This document shows positions 6,261 to 24,753 of a stretch of 32,000 nucleotides of DNA, piece after piece. Numbering within the stretch: the stretch's first letter is position 1; every line of letters starts with the position of its first letter. Source of the DNA: an uncultured archaeon (GTDB taxonomy: Archaea > Iainarchaeota > Iainarchaeia > Iainarchaeales > DATDZZ01); assembly GCA_964373795.1 (NCBI GenBank), contig CAYJVY010000008.1:1-32000 (forward strand), written 5' to 3'. The notes under the pieces were generated by a model. It saw nothing but the letters and a program-made list of their open reading frames with translations. It made no database searches and was not told the origin of the DNA. The position numbers and the translations under genes were made by a program.

Positions 6261-7358
6261 ATGAATTTAATTCTTTTTTTAATTATTTCACTTGTAATTG
6301 GGTTTGCGTTTACTTTTTGGTTAATGCCTTTGTACATGAAATTTGTTTTCAGAGTAGGAGTAACAGGAATTGATCAACAAAAAAAAGGCAAACCATTACT
6401 TCCAACTTCTGGAGGAGTACCTGTTTTTCTTGGATTGTTTGCAAGCATTTTGGTTTTTATTTTGCTTTCAACTTTTTCAAGTGAAAATCCTTTTAGTTTT
6501 GAAGTAATTAAAAGAAATATGCTTTTGCTTGGAGGATTGCTTTCAATTGCTATTTTTACTTCAGTTGGTTTCTTTGATGATGTTTATGTTCAAAGATATG
6601 AAAAATTAATGCGTTCTGATACAAAGGAAAGAAGAATTGGTTTAAGGCAATGGCAAAAGCCTTTGCTTACCTTGCTTGGAGGAGTTCCATTAATTGTTTT
6701 AATGGCTGGAACAAGCGTAATGGATTTCCCTGTTTTAGGCAGAATTGATATTGGATTAATTTATCCATTAATTTTAATTCCTTTAGCAGTTGTAACCGTT
6801 TCAAATGCAACAAACATGTTAGCTGGCTTGAATGGCTTGGAAGCAGGTTTAATGATTATTGCTTCCTTCACTTTAGGACTTTTTTCTTTATCAATTGGAA
6901 GAATTGAAGGCCCTGTAATTGCTTTTTCTTTAACTGCAACACTGCTTGCATTTTTTGTATTCAATAAATATCCTTCTAAAATCTTGCCAGGAGATTCTTT
7001 AACTTATTTTGCTGGAGGAGCATTTGTTACAGCAGTAATTCTTGGAAACGTTGAAAAACTTGGAATACTTATTTTTATTCCATGGATTTTAGAAGCTTTT
7101 TTAAAATTGAGGGCAAGATTTAAGGCTCGCTCGTTTGGAGACTTGCAAAAAGACGGAACACTTAAAGCTCCTTATGAAAAAATTTTTTCTTTAACTCATA
7201 TTGTAATGAAGTTACCTGAATGGCTTGGAAGAAAAAGATTTACTGAAAGACAAGCAGTAATAGTTTTATTGCTTTTTGAAATACTTGTATGCATTATTGC
7301 TTTGCTTATCTATAACAGGGTTTTAATTGACGCCGTATTTTTTAAGATACTTATTTAA
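6261..7358 (+). CDS. Glycosyltransferase family 4 (polyprenyl-phosphate HexNAc-1-phosphate transferase, AglH/WecA/MraY-like)
   Basis: Polytopic membrane protein with FFDDV, NATNMLAGLNGLEAG and PGDSLTYFAG motifs. Confidence 0.75.
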   Translation: MNLILFLIISLVIGFAFTFWLMPLYMKFVFRVGVTGIDQQKKGKPLLPTSGGVPVFLGLFASILVFILLSTFSSENPFSFEVIKRNMLLLGGLLSIAIFTSVGFFDDVYVQRYEKLMRSDTKERRIGLRQWQKPLLTLLGGVPLIVLMAGTSVMDFPVLGRIDIGLIYPLILIPLAVVTVSNATNMLAGLNGLEAGLMIIASFTLGLFSLSIGRIEGPVIAFSLTATLLAFFVFNKYPSKILPGDSLTYFAGGAFVTAVILGNVEKLGILIFIPWILEAFLKLRARFKARSFGDLQKDGTLKAPYEKIFSLTHIVMKLPEWLGRKRFTERQAVIVLLLFEILVCIIALLIYNRVLIDAVFFKILI

Positions 7359-8030
7359 TTCTTTTTTGTTTTCCTCTGAAACAAATATTTTTTCATTAAA
7401 TTTTTTGCCAACTAAAAAATTTATTGCCTCAGTTATTTTCAAAATAGAGTAAACAGGAACTCCAGTTTTTTTAGTGAAAAACTTTAAAGCATTTTCTCCT
7501 TCCAAGGTTTTTTGTTCTCTGTCAACTGCAACAATTAATGCAGTTAAATTAATTTCCAAATTGTTTTCTTTTGCAAAGGATTGAATTTTTTCAATTGCTT
7601 CAAACTTTGTTGCAGCAGAGGTTATTACATCATCAACCATTAATACATTGCATTTATTGAAAAACTTTGCTCCAACAAACCATTCACTTGACTTTGAAGC
7701 TTCGCCATGCGTTTTAGCTTCTTTCCTGTCATAATTAAATCCAACTTTTAATTTATGTTCTTTGAATAAAGCAATTGCAGTTGCTTGAGCTATAGCGCTT
7801 CCCTTGTATGAGGGCCCAAAAATAATATCTAAATTTTTATGCAAGCCATTTGAAACAATTGTTTCTGCATAGAATTTTCCTAACTCATAAGTTGTTTCTC
7901 CGTCATTAAACATTCCAATGTTTACAAAATAAGGAGTAGGCCTGCCGTCCTTTAAAGTTAATCCTTGTTTAAAAAATAAAGCATTTGTTTTAATTAAAAA
8001 ATTCGCAAACTCTTCTTTATATTTTTCCAT
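7323..8030 (-). CDS. pyrE: Orotate phosphoribosyltransferase
   Basis: PRPP-binding loop VLMVDDVITSAATK and the DGRPTPYFVN substrate loop. The 3' end overlaps the convergent GT4 gene by 36 nt. Confidence 0.8.
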   Translation of the reverse strand: MEKYKEEFANFLIKTNALFFKQGLTLKDGRPTPYFVNIGMFNDGETTYELGKFYAETIVSNGLHKNLDIIFGPSYKGSAIAQATAIALFKEHKLKVGFNYDRKEAKTHGEASKSSEWFVGAKFFNKCNVLMVDDVITSAATKFEAIEKIQSFAKENNLEINLTALIVAVDREQKTLEGENALKFFTKKTGVPVYSILKITEAINFLVGKKFNEKIFVSEENKKELNKYLKKYGVN

Positions 8031-8115: not shown

Positions 8116-8233
8116 GATTAGCAGCGTTTAGGATGCTCCAAGCAAAAACTCAGTGCAAACCTTTTCGCAGACAGGCTTAACTTCTGGGTTCGAGATGAGA
8201 CCAGGTGTTTCACTGTCGCTTTGACCGCTAATC
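8116..8233 (-). rRNA. rrf: 5S ribosomal RNA (about 118 nt), unlinked to 16S/23S
   Basis: The minus strand reads GATTAGCGGTCAAAGCGACAGTGAAACACCTGGTCTCATCTCGAACCCAGAAGTTAAGCCTGTCTGC...CGCTGCTAATC. The terminal helix GATTAGC/GCTAATC closes the molecule. The universal 5S block CGAACCCAGAAGTTAAGC is present. The region is a GC-rich island in an AT-rich spacer. Confidence 0.9.
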
Positions 8234-8256: not shown

Positions 8257-8265
8257 TTTAAAAAA
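8257..8265 (-). promoter_or_regulatory. Candidate TATA box (TTTTTTAAA on the minus strand) for the 5S rRNA, overlapping the pyrC stop codon
   Basis: It is centred about 27-28 nt upstream of the predicted 5S 5' end at 8233. Only 24 nt separate the pyrC stop from the 5S start. Confidence 0.4.
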
Positions 8266-9568
8266 CTTCTTTTCCTTTGAATTCAGTGAAAAACTTGCCT
8301 TCATCGAATACAAGGTTTCCGTTAACAATTGTTTTTTCTACTTTACCTTTTAATTTTCTTCCATTAAATGGACTCCACTTGCATTTAGTGAATAGTTCTT
8401 CATTTTTTACAATCCATTCTTTTTCTGGATTGAAAACAAATAAATCTGCGTCAAATCCTTTTTTTATTTCTCCTTTTTTTGCAATGTTAAATATTTTTGC
8501 AGGATTTTTTGAACTCATTTCAATTACTTTTTTCAGGCTTTCAGGTTTGTTTTCAAAAAAATTGTAAAGCAAGGAAAACATTGTTTCAAGTCCTGGGACT
8601 CCTGAAGGAGCTTCAAAGTATGGCTTGTTTTTTTCTTCAATTGTGTGAGGGGCGTGATCTGTTGCAATTACATCAACCAAGTTTTTTTCAATTCCTGAAA
8701 TCAAAGCTTTTTGGTCTGCAAGGCCTCGCAAAGGTGGATTCATTTTACCAAAATTGCCAAGTTTTTCTGCGTCAAAGGAATTTAAAAACAAGTGATGAGG
8801 GCAAACCTCGCAAGAAATATTTAGTTTTTCTTTTTTTGCTTTTTCAATTTCTTTTAATGCTTCTTCAGTTGAAACATGACAGAAATGAATTCTTGTCTTA
8901 ACTTGTTTAATTAATTCAATTACTTTTTTCACTGCTTTTAATTCACATTCATCTGCTCTAATCATTGAATGGTATTTTACATTATTAAATGTCGGGCCTG
9001 AAAAAGCCTTGCTTAAGCGTTGAATTAATTCTTCGTCTTCTGCGTGAATGCATGCAAGAAAGTTTTTTTTCTTTGCAGCCTCTAAAACCTTTTTAATTTC
9101 TTCTTGTTTTTCAACCAATAAATTTCCAGTGCTAGATCCTATAAAAATTTTTATTCCGCAAACATTTTTTGCCTTTAAAATTTCTTCAATATTTTCATTG
9201 CTTGCGCCTAAATAAAAACCATAATTAACTAAAGCATTTTTTTTCACTAAATTTCTTTTTTCATTTAATGCTTGCATTGAAGTTATTGAAGGGGAATTGT
9301 TTGGCATGTCTAAAACAGTTGTTACTCCTCCAGCTAAAGCAGCTTGTGATCCTGTAAGCCAGTCTTCCTTGAATTCTTGCCCTGGAGTTCTGAAGTGTAC
9401 ATGTACATCAATTAATCCAGGCAAAATTAATTTTCCAGAGCAATCAATGCTTTTTCCTTTAGGCTTTGAAGAAGTTAAATTCTTGATTTTTCCATTTGCA
9501 ATTACAATGTTTTTTTTCACGAATTTTCCATTCAAGAAAACCATTCCATTAATTAATGCTAAATTCAT
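8258..9568 (-). CDS. pyrC: Dihydroorotase (amidohydrolase superfamily)
   Basis: DVHVHFRTPG metal motif, later HAED and TDHAPH motifs, 436 aa, in a pyr operon context. Confidence 0.85.
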   Translation of the reverse strand: MNLALINGMVFLNGKFVKKNIVIANGKIKNLTSSKPKGKSIDCSGKLILPGLIDVHVHFRTPGQEFKEDWLTGSQAALAGGVTTVLDMPNNSPSITSMQALNEKRNLVKKNALVNYGFYLGASNENIEEILKAKNVCGIKIFIGSSTGNLLVEKQEEIKKVLEAAKKKNFLACIHAEDEELIQRLSKAFSGPTFNNVKYHSMIRADECELKAVKKVIELIKQVKTRIHFCHVSTEEALKEIEKAKKEKLNISCEVCPHHLFLNSFDAEKLGNFGKMNPPLRGLADQKALISGIEKNLVDVIATDHAPHTIEEKNKPYFEAPSGVPGLETMFSLLYNFFENKPESLKKVIEMSSKNPAKIFNIAKKGEIKKGFDADLFVFNPEKEWIVKNEELFTKCKWSPFNGRKLKGKVEKTIVNGNLVFDEGKFFTEFKGKEVF

Positions 9569-10078
9569 TTATCTCCCTCTTATTTCTCTATGCCTTTTAA
9601 TTGCTTCTGGATTTAATTCAATGGTTCCACGTTTATCTATTCTTTCATGCCAACTTGTTTTACCTTGAGAAAACCATTTTCTTGGATTTTGATTTATTTT
9701 TGCAATAAGGGCTTGAATTACTTTGGTTGCCGCAAAAGCAATAGCTCTTTCCATTCCAATTTTTTTCATTTCATGAATTAATGCAAAAAACAATTTAGTT
9801 GCAATTTTTCTTCTTCTATTTTTTGGGTCAACATATACTCTATTATATAAAATGTCATTTCTGTCCCTTCTTATACCAAATGAAAGAAACCCTAAAGGTT
9901 TTCCACTACTGTCTATTGCGACAATGAAATTATAGTCTCCCCCTTTCCCAGCTTCTGTAATGCTTCTTCTAAGTTCTTGTTTTGACATTCCGTAATTTAT
10001 ATTTGCTAGAACAAAGTCTGCGCATCTCAAGTAAACTGGATCTAATTCATTTAATTCACTTAACAATTCAAATCTCAT
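9569..10078 (-). CDS. GNAT-family N-acetyltransferase (divergent)
   Basis: VYVDPKNRRRKIATKLFFALIHEMKK resembles GNAT motif A (Q/R-x-x-G-x-G/A variant). The stop directly abuts the pyrC start. Confidence 0.5.
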   Translation of the reverse strand: MRFELLSELNELDPVYLRCADFVLANINYGMSKQELRRSITEAGKGGDYNFIVAIDSSGKPLGFLSFGIRRDRNDILYNRVYVDPKNRRRKIATKLFFALIHEMKKIGMERAIAFAATKVIQALIAKINQNPRKWFSQGKTSWHERIDKRGTIELNPEAIKRHREIRGR

Positions 10079-10083
10079 TTAAT

Positions 10084-10956
10084 TCACTTCAATAAATCTT
10101 CACCTAAATCTTTAAAGGAAACATATTCTTTTAATGAAACTTTTTTTCCTGCTTTAGTGCGAGAGGTTTCACCAAATTCATTCATTTTTTTAAGTTGTTT
10201 GCCTGAAAAAACCGGGCCATCAGTGCAAACCCTGAATTCATTGCAACAACAAGCTGCACAAATTCCTATTCCGCATTTCATGAATCTTTCAAGGCTTCCA
10301 AAATATTTTGCTTTAATTTCTTCAGCTAACTGCAAGGCTTTTTTCATCATTATTTCCGGGCCACAAGAATAAATTACATTAAATTTTTCTCCTGAAGAAA
10401 TTAATTCTTTTAATTTATCTGTAGTAAAGCCTTGAAAACCATGAGAGCCATCATCAGTGCAAGGAAAAACTTTTCCACATTCAGCAAATCTTTTCTCTGA
10501 TAAAACTCCTTGCTTTGTTCGCGCGCCAAGAATTGAAGTAACTTGAATTTTTTGTTTTGCAAGTGCTTCAGCTAATTCAGTTAAAGCAGGAATTCCTAAT
10601 CCTCCTCCAACAATGCATGCCTTTTTCCATTGCTTTTTAATTGGAAAATTTGTTCCGTATGGGCCGCGAATTCCAATTAAGTCTCCTGGTTTTACTTGAA
10701 TTAGTTTTTGAGTGTAAAAACCTTTTGCTTGCAAAGTAATTCCAACTTGTTTTCCTTTTCCACTGAAATCTAAAGTAAAAGGTTTTTCATCTATTCCAGG
10801 CAACCAAATCATTGCAAACTGTCCAGGCTTTGCATTCATTTCAGTTTCTAAAAAAATTGTTTTAGTATTCAATTCATGATCTAAAACTTTTGATACTTTA
10901 ACTATTTTTGGCTTGGAAAAAACTTTTGAAACTTGGTTTAAAACCATGGATTGCAT
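10084..10956 (-). CDS. pyrK: Dihydroorotate dehydrogenase electron-transfer subunit (FAD/2Fe-2S)
   Basis: The FNR-like domain carries GGGLGIPAL. The C-terminal cluster is CGIGICAACCC...C. Confidence 0.85.
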   Translation of the reverse strand: MQSMVLNQVSKVFSKPKIVKVSKVLDHELNTKTIFLETEMNAKPGQFAMIWLPGIDEKPFTLDFSGKGKQVGITLQAKGFYTQKLIQVKPGDLIGIRGPYGTNFPIKKQWKKACIVGGGLGIPALTELAEALAKQKIQVTSILGARTKQGVLSEKRFAECGKVFPCTDDGSHGFQGFTTDKLKELISSGEKFNVIYSCGPEIMMKKALQLAEEIKAKYFGSLERFMKCGIGICAACCCNEFRVCTDGPVFSGKQLKKMNEFGETSRTKAGKKVSLKEYVSFKDLGEDLLK

Positions 10957-10960
10957 TTTT

Positions 10961-11389
10961 TCACCTTGCTCTTGTTTTGCCCCAAGTTTTTCTTTTAAGC
11001 TCGTCTAATAATTCGTTTTTTCCTTGAACAGTTATTCCAGCTTTTTCAGCTGTTTTTCTTATAGGCCAATTAATTGCTCGCAAAACTTTGTGTGAAGCAT
11101 CAAATGAAGTTGAATGTAAAACTATTCTTGATTTCACGCCAATTCTTTTACACCATAATGCAAACCTAAATCCTCCAACTGCATCGTGAAGCCTTAAACT
11201 GTTTCCTCTGATATCATAATCGGCAACAATTAACTCAAAATTATGGCCTTGTTTTTGCATTGCTAAAACTTTTTCTTTAGCTTTTTTTACTGTTAAAGCT
11301 GTTTCAACTTTAAATCCTTTTTCTTCTAATTCTTTTTTGATTAATACTGTGTTATCTACTGAGTCATCTAAAACTAATGCTGTTTTCAT
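10961..11389 (-). CDS. Stand-alone CheY-like receiver (REC) domain protein, possibly a pseudo-receiver
   Basis: ALVLDDS (acidic pair), ELIVADYD (phospho-acceptor position) and VLHSTS (T/S position) are present. The conserved K-P appears replaced by N-W-P. A 4-nt overlap with pyrD. Confidence 0.55.
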   Translation of the reverse strand: MKTALVLDDSVDNTVLIKKELEEKGFKVETALTVKKAKEKVLAMQKQGHNFELIVADYDIRGNSLRLHDAVGGFRFALWCKRIGVKSRIVLHSTSFDASHKVLRAINWPIRKTAEKAGITVQGKNELLDELKRKTWGKTRAR

Positions 11390-12318
11390 TTAATCACAAT
11401 TTTTTCATGAGCTTTTCCTTTTAATTCTTTTAAACTTGAATAACCATTTTCTTTAAGCCAGTTTTCTGCTTCTTCGCAGACTTGTTTGAAAACATTTAAT
11501 CCTTTGAAATAAATTGCTGTTCCAATTCCCATTAAGCTTGCGCCTGCAAGAGAATATTCTATTAAGTCTTCTCCAGTCATTATTCCTCCAGTGCCAATAA
11601 TTGGAATTTCCACTGCTTCAAAAACTTGGTATACACATCTAACTGCAATTGGTTTTAATGCAGGGCCACTTAATCCTCCGACCTTGTTTTTCAGAATCGG
11701 CATTTTAGTTGTTAAATCAATGCTCATTCCTTGAGCAGTATTAATTGCAGTAATCGAATTTGCTCCTGCGTCCTCAACTGCCTTTGCAATTTGTGCAATG
11801 CTTGCAACATTTGGTGAAAGCTTTATTGAAACAGGAATTCTTCCAACAGAATTTTTAATTATTTCAGTTACTTTTCCAGCTGTTTCAGGAGAAGCAGCAT
11901 AAGGTAAGCCAGCTTCTTTGTCTACATTTGGACAAGAAATATCTGCTTCAATTAAAGGAGGATTTAATTCAGCAATAAGAGAAGCAATTTCTTCAAACTC
12001 TTCCATTGATTTTGCAAAAATGCTTAGAAAAACAGGTGAAGAAGAATTTTTTAAAGCAAACTGTAAGTCTTTTTTTGCTTCATCAAATCCTGGATTGCTT
12101 AAACCAATTGCATTCAATAATCCACCTTGCACTTCAACAATTGTTGGATTTCTATGGCCTTTTCTTTCATGTAATGAAACACTTTTAGATGTTACTGCTC
12201 CTGCGCCTTTTCTTCCAGCTTCACATAAAATTTCTCCTGTTACTCCACAAATTCCTGAAGCTAAAACAGTTGGATTTTGCAATTCCATTCCTAAAAAATT
12301 TGTATTCAATGAATTCAT
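11386..12318 (-). CDS. pyrD: Dihydroorotate dehydrogenase 1B catalytic subunit
   Basis: ASGICG, NAIGLSNPG, ISCPN and GTGGI motifs of class 1 DHODH. Confidence 0.9.
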   Translation of the reverse strand: MNSLNTNFLGMELQNPTVLASGICGVTGEILCEAGRKGAGAVTSKSVSLHERKGHRNPTIVEVQGGLLNAIGLSNPGFDEAKKDLQFALKNSSSPVFLSIFAKSMEEFEEIASLIAELNPPLIEADISCPNVDKEAGLPYAASPETAGKVTEIIKNSVGRIPVSIKLSPNVASIAQIAKAVEDAGANSITAINTAQGMSIDLTTKMPILKNKVGGLSGPALKPIAVRCVYQVFEAVEIPIIGTGGIMTGEDLIEYSLAGASLMGIGTAIYFKGLNVFKQVCEEAENWLKENGYSSLKELKGKAHEKIVIK

Positions 12319-12325
12319 TTAAATC

Positions 12326-13216
12326 CTAAATTAATAGTTTTCCAAATCTAATTGAAGCATAAAGTCTTACTAATTTTATTACAAAAACATATGTTGTTGC
12401 AATAAGAAAAATAAGTAAAGTGTGTAAAAAAGTTTTGTTTTCCAAAAAAGTAATTCCTCTAGGAGAAGAAACATTTAGTTTTCCTCCTGAATGCCAAGTT
12501 CCAGTAACTGTTTGAAAATCATTTAAAGGATTCACTATAAAGCCAAACTTGATGTGCAAAAATTCTTTCACTAAAGGATTTACTGGATGTTTTTTGAATA
12601 AAAGCACGTCATTTTGATGATAGTTAATTCTCTTCCAAGCATATTTTAAAATCTTTAAAATGCCTTGAGGCTTTACTTCTTCGTGATCGTGAAAATATTT
12701 TGCGTTCACGACTTTTAATTTATATCCTGCTTCCATTATTTTTAGAGTTAAATCAGAGTCTTCCCTGTAATAAAAATAGTCTTCATCATATCCTCCTCCA
12801 ACCTTTTTTAAAGCTTTTTTGAGAAAACCAGTTGAAGTACCTCCATAAGGAGGATAAGCAGTTACAACTCCGACTTGTGGGTCTTCAAATCCTTTCACCA
12901 TTTCTTTTAACCAATTTTTTTCAGGCAAGCAATCATGATCCATATTAATAATTATTTCATGTTTTGCAATTTTAATGCCTGCATTTCTTGCCTTGCATAC
13001 TCCTTGGTTTTTAGAAAAATTAATTATTGAAATTTTTTTGTTTGAAGAAAAATTTTCTTGCAACATTTTTTTAGTTAAATCAGTTGAACCATCGTTTACT
13101 ATAATTATTTCAAAACCAGCAGGATAATCTTGCTTCAGCATTTCCTTTACTACTTTTTTCAAAGTATTAACATTATTTAAAGTAGGAATTACAATGCTTG
13201 CATTAGGATAATTCAT
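12326..13216 (-). CDS. Glycosyltransferase family 2 with a C-terminal TM helix
   Basis: SIVIPTLNN, VNDGSTD, DHD and YREDSDL motifs. I place the start at MNYPNAS (ATG 13216), which forms an ATGA overlap with the pyrI stop. The track start 13270 would overlap pyrI by 58 nt. Confidence 0.8.
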   Translation of the reverse strand: MNYPNASIVIPTLNNVNTLKKVVKEMLKQDYPAGFEIIIVNDGSTDLTKKMLQENFSSNKKISIINFSKNQGVCKARNAGIKIAKHEIIINMDHDCLPEKNWLKEMVKGFEDPQVGVVTAYPPYGGTSTGFLKKALKKVGGGYDEDYFYYREDSDLTLKIMEAGYKLKVVNAKYFHDHEEVKPQGILKILKYAWKRINYHQNDVLLFKKHPVNPLVKEFLHIKFGFIVNPLNDFQTVTGTWHSGGKLNVSSPRGITFLENKTFLHTLLIFLIATTYVFVIKLVRLYASIRFGKLLI

Positions 13217-13664
13217 TTCAATCCTGTAACAATTTGTTGTTCGCTCATTGTTTTCTCGCAATAAAAGCAATGAGCTTGTAAAGGCAAAGCGTTAATGAAA
13301 AACTTGGTTGGAATTTTGTCGTGATTTGAAATACAATTAGGGTTAATGCATTTAATTAAATCGAAAACCTTTTTCGGCAAATTAATTGATTCTTTTTTAA
13401 TTACTTTTTTGTTTCGAATAATGTTTACAGTTGAACCTTTTCCAATTAAACCAATTTTATTAATTTCTTCTTCACTTAACTCATGATTGCCTATAAAAAT
13501 TAAGTCTTTTTTTCTCATTAAAGTGCTTGGTACATTCATTGCAACCCCAATACTTGCATCAGAGTTTATGCCTAAAATTTTAATTATTTGAAGAGCTTTT
13601 CCTGCAGGAATATGATCAATTGCGGTTCCATTATCTATTTCGTTTAAAATAATTTTGCTTTCCA

Positions 13665-13665
<1 letters not shown>
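13213..13665 (-). CDS. pyrI: Aspartate carbamoyltransferase regulatory chain
   Basis: IDNGTAIDHIPAG N-domain and the C-terminal Zn site CINPNCIS...CFYCE. A TAATG overlap with pyrB. Confidence 0.9.
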
Positions 13666-14702
<1,037 letters not shown>

Positions 14703-14713
14703 TTATTAAGGGT

Positions 14714-15511
14714 TTAAATCAATTCTTTTGCTTTAACTGTTTGAATTTGTTTTTCAAGTGCATCACTTATGTCTTTTTTTACTTGTTCAAACTCTGCGTA
14801 GTTACCCATTATAAGGGGCATTAAGTCTTTTTTCCAGTCTTTTCTTTTTTCTTCAATTTTTTTCAAAAATATGTTTTTTTCAAAAACTGTTTTATGTTTT
14901 CTGAACTTTTTTCCAAGTAAGCTGAAATCTATTTGAATGTTTTTGAATTTCAACAAAAACCATAAATCATAAACATCCCTTGCTTTTTTCCTGCTGTAAA
15001 TTGCCAAGATTTTTTCCAAGATGATTTCGTGTAAATCTATTGCAAAAACATGAAATGCTGGAATATCTGGGTAATTTGAGTATAGGAGCATTCTTTTTGG
15101 TTCGAGTAAAACTTTTTCCCGCAAACTTATATCTAGTCTAATAAAACACAAACTTTTTGGATTGCCATCAAAAAAAGGGCCTAAAAATTCTAGTCCAATA
15201 CTTAATTGGTTTTGGTATTTGTCAATGGATTTGATTTTGGCTTTGATGCCTGTTTGTCTGAACAAAAAAACCAGTTTTTCCAAACGCTTTTCAAAATTAA
15301 TGTTTTTTGAAAAAGAGAAATCCAAATCCTCACTAAAGCGGTTCAAACTATGCAGTTTATACAAACAAGTTCCGCCTTTAAAAACCAATTCTTTGCCGAC
15401 AACAGAGTAAATAAAGTAAAGAAGCAAATTTTGCAAGTAATCCTTTTCAATTTGTGTTTCGTTTAATCTTTTCAGTCCAGCTAAAGCTCTTAATTCTTCT
15501 TTACCAATCAA
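14714..15511 (-). CDS. abiEii: AbiEii/AbiGii-family nucleotidyltransferase toxin (DUF1814), type IV toxin-antitoxin / abortive infection
   Basis: FKGGTCLYKL and RFSEDLDFS nucleotidyltransferase motifs. Directly abuts the upstream AbiEi-like gene. Confidence 0.75.
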   Translation of the reverse strand: MIGKEELRALAGLKRLNETQIEKDYLQNLLLYFIYSVVGKELVFKGGTCLYKLHSLNRFSEDLDFSFSKNINFEKRLEKLVFLFRQTGIKAKIKSIDKYQNQLSIGLEFLGPFFDGNPKSLCFIRLDISLREKVLLEPKRMLLYSNYPDIPAFHVFAIDLHEIILEKILAIYSRKKARDVYDLWFLLKFKNIQIDFSLLGKKFRKHKTVFEKNIFLKKIEEKRKDWKKDLMPLIMGNYAEFEQVKKDISDALEKQIQTVKAKELI

Positions 15512-16108
15512 TTAATTCACCTTTTCCAAGAACTTTTTTGCTTTTTTCCGCCATGGTTTTCTAATTATTTTCATTAAGTATTTTGAAATAAGCTTTATCT
15601 CAAGTTCATCTCTATTTTTGGAAATTATTTCCAGTAACTCTGATTCTGAAACAAGGTTGAAAGCAAAAGAGTCAGCTATGGCTTTTTCTTTGCTTGCCAC
15701 AAAAATTTCCATTCCTTTGTAATGTACTTTGTTAAACCCAAATAGGTTTTCTGTTTTGCTTTTAATAAAACGAATTTTTGCGTTTGCGAATTCTATTTCT
15801 TTTTTCTTTTTGGATCTTGTTGTAAAAACATCAATTGTTGAGGGCAGTTGTTCAGTTAAATTGTGATATTGTAGAGCTGACCATCCTGAAATATAGCTAG
15901 GCCAAAGAATCCTGGAAGCAACAAGCAAAGCATCCTTATAAACAGTGTATTTGTCTCTCTCAATTCGGAAAATCAATTTGGCATTGCTTAGCCTGTACAA
16001 TAACAAGTTAACATAGTTTTTCTTTTTTTCCAAAATATCCAAAACTATTTTGGAGGTAAAAACTGCATACTTCTGCAGTTCATTCAATACGTATATTCGA
16101 TTAACCAT
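15512..16108 (-). CDS. abiEi: AbiEi-family antitoxin / transcriptional regulator (N-terminal wHTH)
   Basis: Size of about 200 aa and an N-terminal wHTH-like segment. The conserved pairing places it immediately upstream of the DUF1814 gene. Confidence 0.65.
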   Translation of the reverse strand: MVNRIYVLNELQKYAVFTSKIVLDILEKKKNYVNLLLYRLSNAKLIFRIERDKYTVYKDALLVASRILWPSYISGWSALQYHNLTEQLPSTIDVFTTRSKKKKEIEFANAKIRFIKSKTENLFGFNKVHYKGMEIFVASKEKAIADSFAFNLVSESELLEIISKNRDELEIKLISKYLMKIIRKPWRKKAKKFLEKVN

Positions 16109-21783: not shown

Positions 21784-22548
21784 TCATTCCCCAATTTTTT
21801 TTAAATATTTAATTATTTGTTCGTGAATTAATCCATTGCTTGCAATTAAGTCTCTTGAAGTTGTTTGCCATTCTTTTCCTTGCCAGTTAGTTACTTTTCC
21901 TCCGGCTTCTCTTACAAGTATGGTTCCAGCAGCAATATCGTATAACTCGTAGTCTCCTCCGAATCTTGCATCCATTCTTCCAATAGCAACATTAGCTAAA
22001 TCTAATGCCGAACTTCTAGTTATTTTAATTCGCCTAGATATTTGAATTATTTCAATGTTTTTTTCTAGGTCTCTTCGCCTTGATGACAAACCTATAGTGG
22101 ATTCATCTAATATTTTGTATTTTGAAACATGGATTGGTTTTTCATTGAGATATGCTCCTTTTCCTTTTTCTGCATAGAAAAGTTCTTTTCTGCAAGGATC
22201 TAAAGTCACTCCCACAATGACTTCTGAATTTTTAATTAAAGCAATTGTAATGCAAAAATATGCAAACCCTCTTTCAAAGTTTCCAGTGCCATCTAGTGGG
22301 TCAATAGTCCATAAGTAATCTGAATTTTTTGTCTGTTTTCCAAATTCTTCTCCGTAAAAAGAGTGCTCTGGAAATTCAGCTGAAATTATTTCAATTATTT
22401 TTTTCTCTGCTTCTTTGTCTGCTTGTGTTACTGTAGAGCCATCTGCTTTTTTTTCTGAAACAAATTCTTTATCAAAATACCTCATTGCAATTTTTCCAGC
22501 CGCTTTTACAGCCTTTATTGCAATTTTCAATTCTTTTGATTTATTCAT
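21784..22548 (-). CDS. suhB: Inositol monophosphatase family protein (archaeal IMPase/FBPase-type)
   Basis: FYGEE, WTIDPLDGTGNF and the C-terminal YDIAAG motifs. Confidence 0.85.
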   Translation of the reverse strand: MNKSKELKIAIKAVKAAGKIAMRYFDKEFVSEKKADGSTVTQADKEAEKKIIEIISAEFPEHSFYGEEFGKQTKNSDYLWTIDPLDGTGNFERGFAYFCITIALIKNSEVIVGVTLDPCRKELFYAEKGKGAYLNEKPIHVSKYKILDESTIGLSSRRRDLEKNIEIIQISRRIKITRSSALDLANVAIGRMDARFGGDYELYDIAAGTILVREAGGKVTNWQGKEWQTTSRDLIASNGLIHEQIIKYLKKIGE

Positions 22549-23168
22549 TTTAAGCCTCTTCTTCTTTGATTTATCCTTGATTGAGATTTATTTCTTTTTC
22601 TAATTCTTCTTTCTTTTTTTTGTTTTAATGCAATTCCATATGATGTTCCTTTTGTCAGAGTAAGACCTTCATCAATATTTATTCTTCTTCTATCAATTTT
22701 TAGTTTAAACCGTAAATGGTTTTCCACATCGTATACACAGTCTTCTTTGTATTCCCCAAATAAATTAAATCTTGTTTCACTTGAAGCATTTAATCCTTTT
22801 CTTTTCAATTCTTCTACTATTGAATTTACTTGCCCAACCACTCCAATTTGATTCATTGGAATAACAACTATTCTTTCTTGTAATTCTTTTTCAGCAAATC
22901 CAACTAGTTTTAATAATTCTGGTAATTTACTTAATCCATCTATGGAAGTTGGAAGCAAGATAACTAGAACGCTTTTTTCTCTTCCTTTTACTTTTTGAAT
23001 TTGTTTGCCCCAATGCATTTTAAGTGCTTGAACGCCTTGAAAAAATCTTTTTCTATGTGCTTTGTTAGTGAACAAATCTTTTTCCAAGTTTGGACGCAGT
23101 GTGCTTTGCAGTCGAACGTAATACTCATACAATGGGTGAATTAATACATTTATTTCTTCTACATCCAT
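22545..23168 (-). CDS. Uncharacterised paralog P1 (globular alpha/beta-like domain plus polybasic tail)
   Basis: Shares MxxxxxNVLIHPLY, WGKQI, SVLVIL, FAEKEL, RIVVIP, TRFNLFGEYKEDCV, HLR and RRRINI blocks with the next ORFs. Tail is KQKKERRIRKRNKSQSRINQRRRGLK. ATGA overlap with suhB. Confidence 0.8.
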   Translation of the reverse strand: MDVEEINVLIHPLYEYYVRLQSTLRPNLEKDLFTNKAHRKRFFQGVQALKMHWGKQIQKVKGREKSVLVILLPTSIDGLSKLPELLKLVGFAEKELQERIVVIPMNQIGVVGQVNSIVEELKRKGLNASSETRFNLFGEYKEDCVYDVENHLRFKLKIDRRRINIDEGLTLTKGTSYGIALKQKKERRIRKRNKSQSRINQRRRGLK

Positions 23169-23174
23169 TTTTTT

Positions 23175-23771
23175 TCACACTCTTCTAGGAGTATTTCTTT
23201 TTCCAGGCCTTATTTTTGGAGAATCTCTTTTTTTTCTATTAGTGTGTGAAGGTCTTTTGTATCCAGTATATCCTTTTCCACGTCTTTTAGAACTTTCTGG
23301 AAAGCTTAGCTGTTTTTCTATTTCTATTTCTTCCTTTTCCAGTGTTCTTAATGCGCCGCAAACAAGTGGAACACAGTATTCTTTGTGTTCTCCGAATACC
23401 TTAAACCTTGTTTCGTTTGAGACTTCAAATTTTTTTGATAATTCATGAAATGCTTTAAACATTTGTTGTTCAGCTGTGAGTCCTGGAAAACCAAAAACTA
23501 TAACTAATTTGTCTCCTAATTCTTTTCTTGCAAAATCAATTAATTTTTTTAATTCTCTTTCTGCATTATTAGTTGGTTGGGAATCTGAAAGCAATGGATG
23601 TAAGATTATGAATGCAGAATTAGGAGTTCTTGTAACTTCGCGCATTCTTTGCATCCAACGTCCTGTAAGAATTTTTACTCCTTGAAGCTGTCTTCCAAAT
23701 TCTTGTGGGTCTTGCACTCCAAGTAATTCATCCAATGGATGAACTAATACATTTACTTCTCTGAGTTGCAT
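23175..23771 (-). CDS. Uncharacterised paralog P2
   Basis: MQLREVNVLVHPLDEL, NSAFIILHP, FARKEL, LVIVFG and TRFKVFGEHKEYCV. Tail is SKRRGKGYTGYKRPSHTNRKKRDSPKIRPGKRNTPRRV. I chose the start at ATG 23771 so that Met-x5-NVL matches the paralogs; an alternative ATG is at 23780. Confidence 0.8.
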   Translation of the reverse strand: MQLREVNVLVHPLDELLGVQDPQEFGRQLQGVKILTGRWMQRMREVTRTPNSAFIILHPLLSDSQPTNNAERELKKLIDFARKELGDKLVIVFGFPGLTAEQQMFKAFHELSKKFEVSNETRFKVFGEHKEYCVPLVCGALRTLEKEEIEIEKQLSFPESSKRRGKGYTGYKRPSHTNRKKRDSPKIRPGKRNTPRRV

Positions 23772-23789
23772 AAAAATCATTAATTAATT

Positions 23790-24404
23790 TCAAATTCTTG
23801 TTCTTGGTTTGTTTTTTCTTCCTGAACGAAGCTTTGTTTTGCCGACAATTTTTCTTCTTGTTCTTGGTTTGTAATATTCTTCATAGTTTGCTCTTTCAGA
23901 TGCATGACTTAGAGGACTCTTTATTTCGATTCTTTTACGATCTATATGTAGATTATATTTTGGTGCAAAGAGACGCAAATGTTCTGACACTGATGTAACA
24001 CATCTATGTTCATGTTCACCAAAAAGAACAAAACGTGTATTTGGTCCAATATTCACTCTATACTCTTGCATCATTGTGAGCATTAGTTGTGTCTGCTCCC
24101 ATATTGATTCCCTAGGCGGCACAACTATTAGTCTACTTACTAATTCCCTTTTTGCAAACGCGATTAGTTTTTCAACATCTTTTGGATCATCTTTTTTTAT
24201 GCGTGGGGTAAAAATTACAAGAACACTATTTGGATTGCCTTTTATTTGTAAAATTTTTTTTCCCCAATAGAATTTCAAAAACTTTGCTCCATGCAAACCT
24301 TTTGTTACGCGATCCACTTTCTTTCTTCTAGCTTTGGGTATACGGTGTAATTCTAAATAGTCATACAATGGATGAACTAAAACATTCAATTCTTCAACTT
24401 CCAT
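23790..24404 (-). CDS. Uncharacterised paralog P3
   Basis: MEVEELNVLVHPLYDY, WGKKILQIKG, NSVLVIF, FAKREL, LIVVPP, TRFVLFGEHEHRCV, HLR and RKRIEI. Tail is YKPRTRRKIVGKTKLRSGRKNKPRTRI. The track start 24410 is TTG; the ATG is at 24404. Confidence 0.8.
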   Translation of the reverse strand: MEVEELNVLVHPLYDYLELHRIPKARRKKVDRVTKGLHGAKFLKFYWGKKILQIKGNPNSVLVIFTPRIKKDDPKDVEKLIAFAKRELVSRLIVVPPRESIWEQTQLMLTMMQEYRVNIGPNTRFVLFGEHEHRCVTSVSEHLRLFAPKYNLHIDRKRIEIKSPLSHASERANYEEYYKPRTRRKIVGKTKLRSGRKNKPRTRI

Positions 24405-24753
24405 TTTCAAAACCTTCTCGGAGTGTTTCTTCTTCCTGATCTAGTTTTAGGTTTTCCAAACTCTTTTCTTCTTTCAACTGGTTTTTTTTGTATCTAGTGT
24501 AGCCTGTTTTCCTTTTTGTATCGTAAAGGGAAAGACCGAGTCTTTTGTCAATTTCGACTCTTTTCATTCCTAGTTCCATATCTGGGTTTGTTGCAACTTC
24601 TTTAATTCTCCGCCCCCAAAGACTTCTAAGAATTTTTGAGGTATTGAATTCTCTGTCAGAACTTTCATGAACCTCCTCAAATAATGCATAGAATGGATGT
24701 CTTAGTAAGTCATACAGCAGATGAACTAAAACATTGACTTGTGTTAACTCCAT
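24394..24753 (-). CDS. Uncharacterised paralog P4, an internally deleted version (head and tail retained, core missing)
   Basis: MELTQVNVLVHLLYDL, WGRRIKEV..NP and then directly MKRVEIDKRL and GYTRYKK (matching RKRIEIK of P3 and GYTGYKRP of P2). There is no FGE..CV block. Overlaps the P3 start by 11 nt. Confidence 0.6.
   Translation of the reverse strand: MELTQVNVLVHLLYDLLRHPFYALFEEVHESSDREFNTSKILRSLWGRRIKEVATNPDMELGMKRVEIDKRLGLSLYDTKRKTGYTRYKKNQLKEEKSLENLKLDQEEETLREGFENGS

Follow-up and report, generated by a model that had tools for sequence, protein, structure and literature searches.

Why would a gene for a signaling domain lie between the two cistrons that encode the subunits of class 1B dihydroorotate dehydrogenase (DHODH)? 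The question is raised by a 32,000-nt stretch of DNA from an uncultured archaeon of the Iainarchaeota (GenBank assembly GCA_964373795.1, contig CAYJVY010000008.1, positions 1 to 32,000), hereafter the window, in which an open reading frame (ORF) of 142 codons, ORF142, separates pyrD from pyrK. A first-pass annotation made without database searches had described ORF142 as an orphan CheY-like receiver, possibly a pseudo-receiver, and had suggested that it serves as an accessory of pyrimidine synthesis. Our analysis upholds the receiver but departs from the annotation on its role. We consider it likely that ORF142 is an orphan single-domain receiver with a phosphorylatable pocket, and that its place in the pyr operon reflects insertion at a permissive junction, specific to its lineage, rather than a dedicated partnership with DHODH.

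The layout of the locus is as first described. The pyrD/ORF142 junction reads GTGATTAAATGAAAACA on the coding strand, where the ATG of ORF142 and the TGA of pyrD share ATGA in a 4-nt overlap. At the ORF142/pyrK junction, GCAAGGTGAAAAAATGCAA, AAAA separates the TGA from the pyrK ATG at 10956, a gap of 4 nt. Matches to TIGR01037 and NF000796 identify the flanking genes as the class 1B DHODH subunits (Table 1).

Receiver fold of ORF142

Searched as a single sequence, ORF142 matches the Pfam family Response_reg (PF00072) over residues 5 to 62 at 16.6 bits (E = 0.0088), short of the gathering cutoff of 30.2, and its best match, to HGTP_anticodon at 19.9 bits (E = 8.6e-4), likewise misses its cutoff of 21. 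Because the anticodon-binding family outscores the receiver family here, we considered whether ORF142 is a spurious ORF or has been assigned the wrong fold, for example in place of an anticodon-binding-like or another flavodoxin-like domain. A 24-member alignment of the ORF142 family (A1), used as a profile and for AlphaFold2, points elsewhere: PF00072 is matched by 21 of the 24 members (best E = 1.9e-10) versus a single member for HGTP_anticodon, and we rejected the latter identity on this count. The A1 profile matched 121 PDB chains at E < 0.01, led by TrrA (3A0U; 7e-10), and among the 60 matches listed, the only entries other than response regulators or receiver domains were a few de novo designed α/β proteins. 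Aligned by hhalign with a profile of 11 canonical receiver domains, A1 scored a probability of 99.2% (E = 2.8e-19). ORF142 alone thus stays under the Pfam threshold, but its family shows significant homology to true receivers when compared with PDB and with the canonical receiver profile.

The AlphaFold2 model of ORF142 built with A1 (predicted local distance difference test [pLDDT] score, 90.3; predicted template modeling score, 0.84) has a five-stranded flavodoxin-like topology running from β1-α1 to β5-α5. Its strands span residues 2 to 7, 26 to 31, 53 to 57, 88 to 93, and 120 to 123, and its helices span residues 11 to 23, 34 to 46, 67 to 82, 101 to 106, 108 to 116, and 124 to 140, with a low-confidence loop after strand 3. 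The top 50 Foldseek matches of this model in PDB are all receiver domains (probability, 1.00; E = 1e-6 to 4e-5), with TM-scores of 0.52 to 0.64 normalized to the query. The closest homolog, P0002, gives a comparable model (pLDDT, 91.1) in which helix 5 is down to one turn. The motifs that first suggested a receiver, LVLDDS (residues 5 to 10), LIVADYD (53 to 59), and VLHSTS (90 to 95), are all present, as is the basic C terminus, whose tail reads KRKTWGKTRAR. On the strength of profiles and models, the predicted receiver fold is secure. Scans of ORF142 with PADLOC and PHROGs returned no match and no sign of a defense or phage origin.

An exhaustive HMMER search of ORF142 against 1.84 billion representatives returned 32 matches at E ≤ 1e-3, 14 of them at E ≤ 1e-10; the weakest of the 32 are ordinary response regulators and hybrid kinases. 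The resulting family comprises about 25 clusters at 50% identity, mostly of 120 to 190 aa, with 28 to 44% identity and a signature of L-H-S-T-A-F / W-C / V-Q-x-K. A word-indexed search with ORF142 alone found only itself, and one with the family alignment found just three of the known members, P0018, P0019, and P0024, plus one weak new match. Since homologs exist at this level of identity, ORF142 is no chance ORF; they occur in many metagenomes, and the reading frame is set within an operon by its ATGA overlap. Together with the PDB and Foldseek matches, which are essentially all receivers, these observations leave a spurious ORF or a misassigned fold with next to no probability. The family represents a receiver subfamily that is rare, divergent, and, it seems, undescribed and that lies below the Pfam threshold.

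Two experimentally determined receivers lie closest to ORF142. In sequence, the family profile matches TrrA (TM1360) of Thermotoga maritima (3A0U/3A0R) best; in fold, ORF142 is nearest to the CheY-like receiver 3CRN of Methanospirillum hungatei (Foldseek E = 1.4e-6). Both resemble ORF142 in the N-terminal half, from strand 1 with its Asp-Asp pair through helix 1, strand 2, and helix 2 to strand 3 with its Asp, although identity is just 17 to 26% and TM-scores normalized to the query are 0.58 to 0.61. Unlike ORF142, TrrA has a canonical C-terminal half with a Lys-Pro pair, and its cognate kinase, ThkA, is encoded adjacent to it.

The family has several features that we record separately. It extends beyond archaea, with members in metagenome-assembled genomes (MAGs) labeled Victivallales (MCF7791631.1) and Oligoflexia (MDC0357349.1); P0010 (L173, 8001 to 9992), P0025, and P0006 (L172, 8001 to 8405) are recorded alongside them. 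Two members carry the receiver domain inside proteins of 663 and 579 aa whose other regions are unannotated, and P0010 has no Pfam match on record. Several of the short members have N-terminal extensions of 40 to 60 residues.

Phosphorylation pocket and divergent C-terminal half

The annotation had read the usual Lys-Pro as replaced by Asn-Trp-Pro and had left open whether the phospho-acceptor pocket is intact. All five active-site residues of Escherichia coli CheY map one to one onto ORF142: the acidic pair D8/D9, the predicted phospho-acceptor D57, T94, and K124. They are conserved across the family: position 8 is Asp in 20 of 24 members and Glu in the other 4, D9 and D57 are found in 24/24, position 94 is Thr in 19 and Ser in 2 of 23, and position 124 is Lys in 19 of 21. 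The profile alignments further pair G73 with CheY G65, and S95, which is Ala in the family consensus, with CheY A88.

The position of the lysine decides how the C-terminal half is read. In the hhalign alignment to the canonical profile at a relaxed mact of 0.05, the segment AEKAGIT-VQGKN pairs with CheY AAQAGASGYVVKP, which places K124 opposite K109, and an 11-residue gap in CheY faces ORF142 residues 99 to 109, with N107-W108-P109 inside. The AlphaFold2 models of ORF142 and P0002 agree: both fold residues 97 to 116 as a kinked helix 4, followed by strand 5, I/T-V-Q-G, and then Lys. Position 108 varies across the family (Arg, Trp, Thr, Asn, Tyr, Gly, and others). A forced global hhalign alignment to a single CheY does reproduce the equivalence of Asn-Trp-Pro with Lys-Pro, at zero confidence; we rejected it in favor of K124, which the canonical-profile alignment and the two models support. 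The proposed replacement was thus a mis-mapping, in that Asn-Trp-Pro belongs to an insertion in helix 4, the Lys is kept, and only the Pro is gone.

Outside the pocket, ORF142 diverges from canonical receivers. It carries an 8-residue insertion in the loop between strand 3 and helix 3, and its helix 4 is split into helices 101 to 106 and 108 to 116. Relative to E. coli CheY, V121 occupies the position of Y106 and N125 that of P110, and ORF142 has two insertions and a basic tail. Four residues outside the canonical set, W79, H92, S93, and F96, are invariant in the family. The C-terminal segment after the Lys is often rich in Arg and Lys.

In known pseudo-receivers, at least one of the five canonical residues is usually lost. 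All five are retained and conserved here, so that by this usual criterion, and as far as sequence can tell, ORF142 is not a pseudo-receiver. A functional pseudo-receiver, that is, a phosphorylation-independent adaptor or scaffold whose acidic pocket would bind a metal or a ligand, could nevertheless account for the missing Lys-Pro and aromatic switch, the split helix 4, the variable or absent helix 5, and the invariant H92-S93, W79, and F96. The lack of a kinase neighbor in any of the contexts described below also suits such a protein, as does the general lack of two-component systems in complete DPANN genomes (PMC5847659, Table 1). This reading has more difficulty with the pocket itself: D9, D57, T/S94, and K124 are invariant or nearly so among proteins at just 28 to 44% overall identity, and the simplest cause is selection on phosphoryl chemistry. 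We regard the pseudo-receiver as an unlikely alternative, and the option raised by the annotation is disfavored.

Gene neighborhoods in pyr operons and in the receiver family

If ORF142 were a dedicated accessory of DHODH, related operons and related receivers might be expected to preserve the association. Using PyrK as the query, we collected 160 loci with PyrK relatives from species-representative genomes and metagenomes, of which 125 have pyrD immediately 5′ of pyrK in the same orientation. These operons keep the gene order pyrB-pyrI-pyrD-pyrK-pyrC. The annotation was right that pyrD and pyrK are normally adjacent, with a spacing of ≤100 nt in 99 of the 125 loci; it is 100 to 300 nt in 13, and a gene-sized insert is present in the remaining 13. 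Absence of the ORF from close relatives with matching operons had been named in advance as evidence against the accessory role, and absence is what the survey returned for relatives at up to 52% PyrK identity: by tblastn and the family hidden Markov model (HMM), no receiver of the ORF142 family lies at or near the pyrD|pyrK junction in any of the 125 loci. The few weak family-HMM matches in the pyrK loci are ordinary regulators elsewhere in those loci.

The pyrD|pyrK junction is filled by other genes in relatives, namely, a protein of about 217 aa of archaemetzincin type (9 loci), an S-adenosylmethionine (SAM)-methyltransferase (2 loci), small membrane proteins, and a VapBC-like pair. Gene-sized inserts are also found at pyrK|pyrC in 26 of 65 loci, where they include toxin-antitoxin pairs and helix-turn-helix (HTH) proteins, and at pyrI|pyrD in 5 of 49.

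The receiver family gives a matching result from the other side. We looked up the gene context of ten other family members, eight of which were informative. None of these eight contexts, bacterial or archaeal, contains pyr genes, and none contains a neighboring histidine kinase. The members lie behind the gene for a large peptidase of family S8, between yjbQ and argB, next to a ParE toxin, between a GT1 glycosyltransferase gene and sdhA-sdhB-fumC, beside a PdxT-like gene on an archaeal contig, and near cupredoxin and PolX genes. Bacterial MAG contigs labeled Victivallales and Oligoflexia are among the contexts, and the Oligoflexia member is the N-terminal domain of a 663-aa protein. Thus, among the 125 pyr loci and the 8 informative contexts, the linkage of receiver and DHODH is unique to this genome, and the proposed accessory role in pyrimidine synthesis finds no comparative support. 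A literature search found no paper that links pyrK or pyrD with a receiver domain.

One member, P0007 (L091, 6809 to 10960), is the one packed between the GT1 gene and sdhA-sdhB-fumC, a flavoprotein/Fe-S redox operon, as is DHODH here; this is one case and probably a coincidence. A link to glycosyltransferases, suggested by GT2 and GT4 genes near ORF142 and by GT1 beside P0007, was set aside on account of too few cases and the commonness of such genes.

ORF142 sits in a packed unit of eight cistrons in the order pyrB-pyrI-GT2-pyrD-REC-pyrK-GNAT-pyrC, where REC denotes the receiver (Table 1). It is probably cotranscribed with pyrD and pyrK and translationally coupled to both; the AGGTGA at its 3′ end would contribute to the coupling with pyrK. 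The same tightness is found at two other inserted genes, since the GT2 start overlaps the pyrI stop via ATGA, and the junction spacing of the GT2 and GNAT genes is ≤7 nt. Because these two genes sit equally tight in the same operon, close packing is a trait of the whole unit and no special mark of the receiver. A scan for promoters and terminators around the operon found nothing above chance and no internal regulatory signal.

Table 1. Coordinates of ORF142, its active-site codons, and the genes of the pyr operon in the window
Feature	Coordinates	Strand	Evidence
ORF142, stand-alone receiver (REC) domain protein, 142 aa, ATG start	10961..11389	-	ORF list
D8-D9 codons, acidic Mg2+-binding pair following strand 1	11363..11368	-	Aligned to CheY D12/D13
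D57 codon, predicted phospho-acceptor Asp, strand 3 end	11219..11221	-	Aligned to CheY D57
T94 codon, conserved Thr/Ser, strand 4 end, in signature L-H-S-T-A/S-F	11108..11110	-	hhalign = CheY T87
K124 codon, conserved Lys, strand 5 end, motif V-Q-G-K, then Asn	11018..11020	-	AlphaFold2, hhalign = CheY K109
Residues 99-109 (SHKVLRAINWP), family-specific insertion splitting helix 4, holds N-W-P	11063..11095	-	hhalign, DSSP
AGGTGA, ORF142 last sense codon and stop; Shine-Dalgarno-like, 5 nt 5′ of pyrK ATG	10961..10966	-	Sequence reading
pyrD, class 1B DHODH, catalytic subunit	11386..12318	-	PF01180 3.9e-71; TIGR01037 3.3e-100
pyrK, class 1B DHODH electron-transfer (FAD/2Fe-2S) subunit	10084..10956	-	NF000796 1.2e-84; PF10418 (DHODB_Fe-S_bind) 1e-10
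pyrB and pyrI, aspartate carbamoyltransferase catalytic and regulatory chains, operon start	13213..14675	-	Pfam OTCace_N/OTCace, PyrI/PyrI_C
GT2 glycosyltransferase, pyrI|pyrD junction	12326..13216	-	PF00535 5.6e-33; gene call; junction sequence
GNAT acetyltransferase, pyrK|pyrC junction	9569..10078	-	PF00583 1.1e-8; junction spacings 5 nt and 0 nt
pyrC, dihydroorotase, final protein gene of packed unit	8258..9568	-	Amidohydro_1 3.7e-33; DHOase family match

An alternative reading is a dedicated pyrimidine regulator that autophosphorylates from carbamoyl phosphate, the substrate of PyrB, and then binds PyrD/PyrK, or the pyr mRNA or DNA through its basic tail, tuning flux or expression. Its appeal lies in the translational coupling of ORF142 to pyrD and in the Shine-Dalgarno-like site that its 3′ end supplies to pyrK, together with an intact phospho-acceptor pocket and the lack of a kinase in the window or beside any examined homolog. 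Carbamoyl phosphate is a proven in vivo donor for one response regulator, BumR (PMC12469816), and examples are known of single-domain regulators with a direct action on enzymes (PMC12802240). The comparative data run the other way: the linkage occurs in one genome, in none of the 125 related pyr operons and none of the 8 family contexts; the same junction is filled by unrelated genes in relatives; and the GT2 and GNAT genes are "coupled" just as much in this operon. The basic tail is weak evidence because similar Arg/Lys-rich tails are found on unrelated small proteins of the window. Taken together, we find a dedicated regulator improbable.

We favor insertion at a permissive junction because the receiver is shared by none of the 125 loci, unrelated inserts are frequent at pyr junctions, and the GT2 and GNAT genes are equally tight. 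Several observations weigh against this reading and its assumption of a working pocket. The ATGA coupling to pyrD and the provision of the pyrK ribosome-binding site tie the expression of ORF142 to that of DHODH, and the absence of the receiver from relatives is gauged only at ≤52% PyrK identity. ORF142 by itself lies well under the Pfam gathering threshold (16.6 versus 30.2 bits). Its family has no Lys-Pro cis-proline, N125 being the residue after K124 in ORF142, and no aromatic switch residue, V121 standing in for CheY Y106 where the family has Val or Ile. Most members have a short helix 5 or none, with a post-Lys segment of just 5 to 25 residues, so that canonical output mechanics may not apply.

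The survey of pyr operons also brought other recurrent inserts to light. The archaemetzincin-type ORF occurs in loci that are all of Woesearchaeota type (L012, 6917 to 7570; L014, 7328 to 7981; L022, 1788 to 2447; L027, 7313 to 7969; L038, 3902 to 4534; L058, 4024 to 5298; L100, 1092 to 1805; L130, 4331 to 4981; and L135, 3477 to 4235). It carries the motif HExxHLLGLNxHH ... CxMxYN ... LCxKCxD, has only weak Peptidase_M54 matches in Pfam, and is fused to a SAM-methyltransferase in L058. Its linkage to the DHODH genes is recurrent and far better conserved than that of the receiver. More generally, pyr operons in this DPANN clade form a mosaic, with SAM-methyltransferases, VapB/VapC-like pairs, and a conserved HTH protein with a 90-aa partner at cistron junctions (for example, L019, 2157 to 2783; L099, 2772 to 3389; and L135, 4353 to 4956). 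Inserts at pyrK|pyrC are found, for example, in L003, L010, L012, L020, L021, L092, L096, L099, and L142.

The window has 31% G+C and an archaeal gene set that includes L21e, Rpb4, Spt5, an aIF2B-like protein, and FtsZ. MAGs of Woesearchaeota and other DPANN archaea contain the nearest relatives of its PyrK, PyrD, and PyrB, at about 52%, 55%, and 59% identity, respectively. No tRNA gene was found around the operon, and the only match in an Rfam scan is a lone 5S rRNA gene (8116 to 8232, minus strand; RF00001, 73.7 bits), located 25 nt 3′ of the pyrC stop, in the orientation of pyrC, and upstream of a gene for a pyrE-like phosphoribosyltransferase (7323 to 8030); the 32 kb is otherwise without rRNA or tRNA genes. 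A GT4 phosphoglycosyl-transferase-like gene (6261 to 7358, plus strand) interrupts the pyrE/pyrF region. Directly 5′ of pyrB, an AbiEi (15512 to 16108) and AbiEii (14714 to 15511) toxin-antitoxin or abortive-infection pair lies on the minus strand, like pyrB itself; 38 nt separate the stop codon of AbiEii from the start of pyrB. Four tandem paralogous ORFs of 207, 201, 206, and 119 aa occupy 22545 to 24753 on the minus strand and have no Pfam match. They share an N-terminal NVLVHPLY, the motifs FAxKEL and TRFxLFGE..CV, and long Arg/Lys-rich C-terminal tails, and form a lineage-specific expanded family to which no function is assigned.

Candidate phosphodonors and the place of ORF142 among archaeal receivers

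ORF142 belongs to the known class of stand-alone CheY-like receivers. About 40% of archaeal response regulators are of this kind; most of them have no conserved neighborhood, keep the Asp, Thr, and Lys, and are expected to be phosphorylated (Galperin et al. 2018; PMC5847659). ORF142 is alike in being a single receiver with no output domain that retains the Asp/Asp pair, Asp, Thr, and Lys and has no conserved neighborhood, and it would share their presumed action, a phosphorylation-dependent protein-protein interaction. It differs from them in its sub-Pfam score, its 8- and 11-residue insertions, the lack of Lys-Pro and of an aromatic switch, and its membership in a rare family found in bacterial and archaeal contigs. 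It is not a chemotaxis CheY, as the window contains no che genes (cheA, cheW, or methyl-accepting chemotaxis protein genes) and V121 stands at the position of Y106.

How might ORF142 be phosphorylated? As the annotation had stated, the window encodes no histidine kinase; none of its 35 ORFs of at least 100 aa matches HisKA or HATPase_c. Because no kinase adjoins any family member examined and complete DPANN genomes are largely without two-component systems, D57 may receive its phosphoryl group from a distal kinase or, with greater likelihood, from a small molecule such as acetyl phosphate or carbamoyl phosphate. Both of these compounds are physiological, in vivo phosphodonors for BumR of Campylobacter jejuni (PMC12469816). 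The likeness of BumR to ORF142 is functional only, that of a kinase-free receiver able to read metabolic phosphodonors, and unlike ORF142, BumR regulates by binding DNA and is paired with a cognate phosphatase sensor. That carbamoyl phosphate is also the substrate of PyrB, the first enzyme of the operon, offers a lead and not a sign of shared membership.

Under the insertion that we favor, ORF142 would have lodged at an intercistronic junction that tolerates new genes and would be cotranscribed with the pyr genes without being a dedicated or stoichiometric DHODH subunit. Once phosphorylated on D57, it would presumably act through protein-protein contacts on the altered helix 4-strand 5 face. 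The basic C-terminal tail possibly assists and might add nucleic acid or membrane affinity.

A bolder proposal would join these threads: a kinase-independent clade, often without helix 5, that reads metabolic acyl-phosphates and that has been recruited here as a carbamoyl-phosphate sensor adjusting PyrD/PyrK activity or pyr expression. We consider this very improbable. If a carbamoyl-phosphate-sensing DHODH regulator were real, archaea would have a new type of metabolic feedback, in which a receiver domain is tied directly to de novo pyrimidine synthesis without the help of a two-component kinase.

As a probable passenger of the pyr operon, ORF142 is a further case of the orphan stand-alone receivers already known to dominate archaeal signaling, with their uninformative neighborhoods. 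With the active-site mapping corrected, its predicted pocket is intact, and the family defines a rare sub-Pfam receiver clade that carries two insertions, lacks Lys-Pro, and can do without helix 5. Since the clade has no neighboring kinase in the bacterial and archaeal contexts examined, small molecules may reasonably be proposed to phosphorylate its members without a kinase. Finally, because pyr-operon junctions have been repeatedly colonized by unrelated genes, tight operon packing is a poor guide to function in the compact genomes of DPANN archaea.

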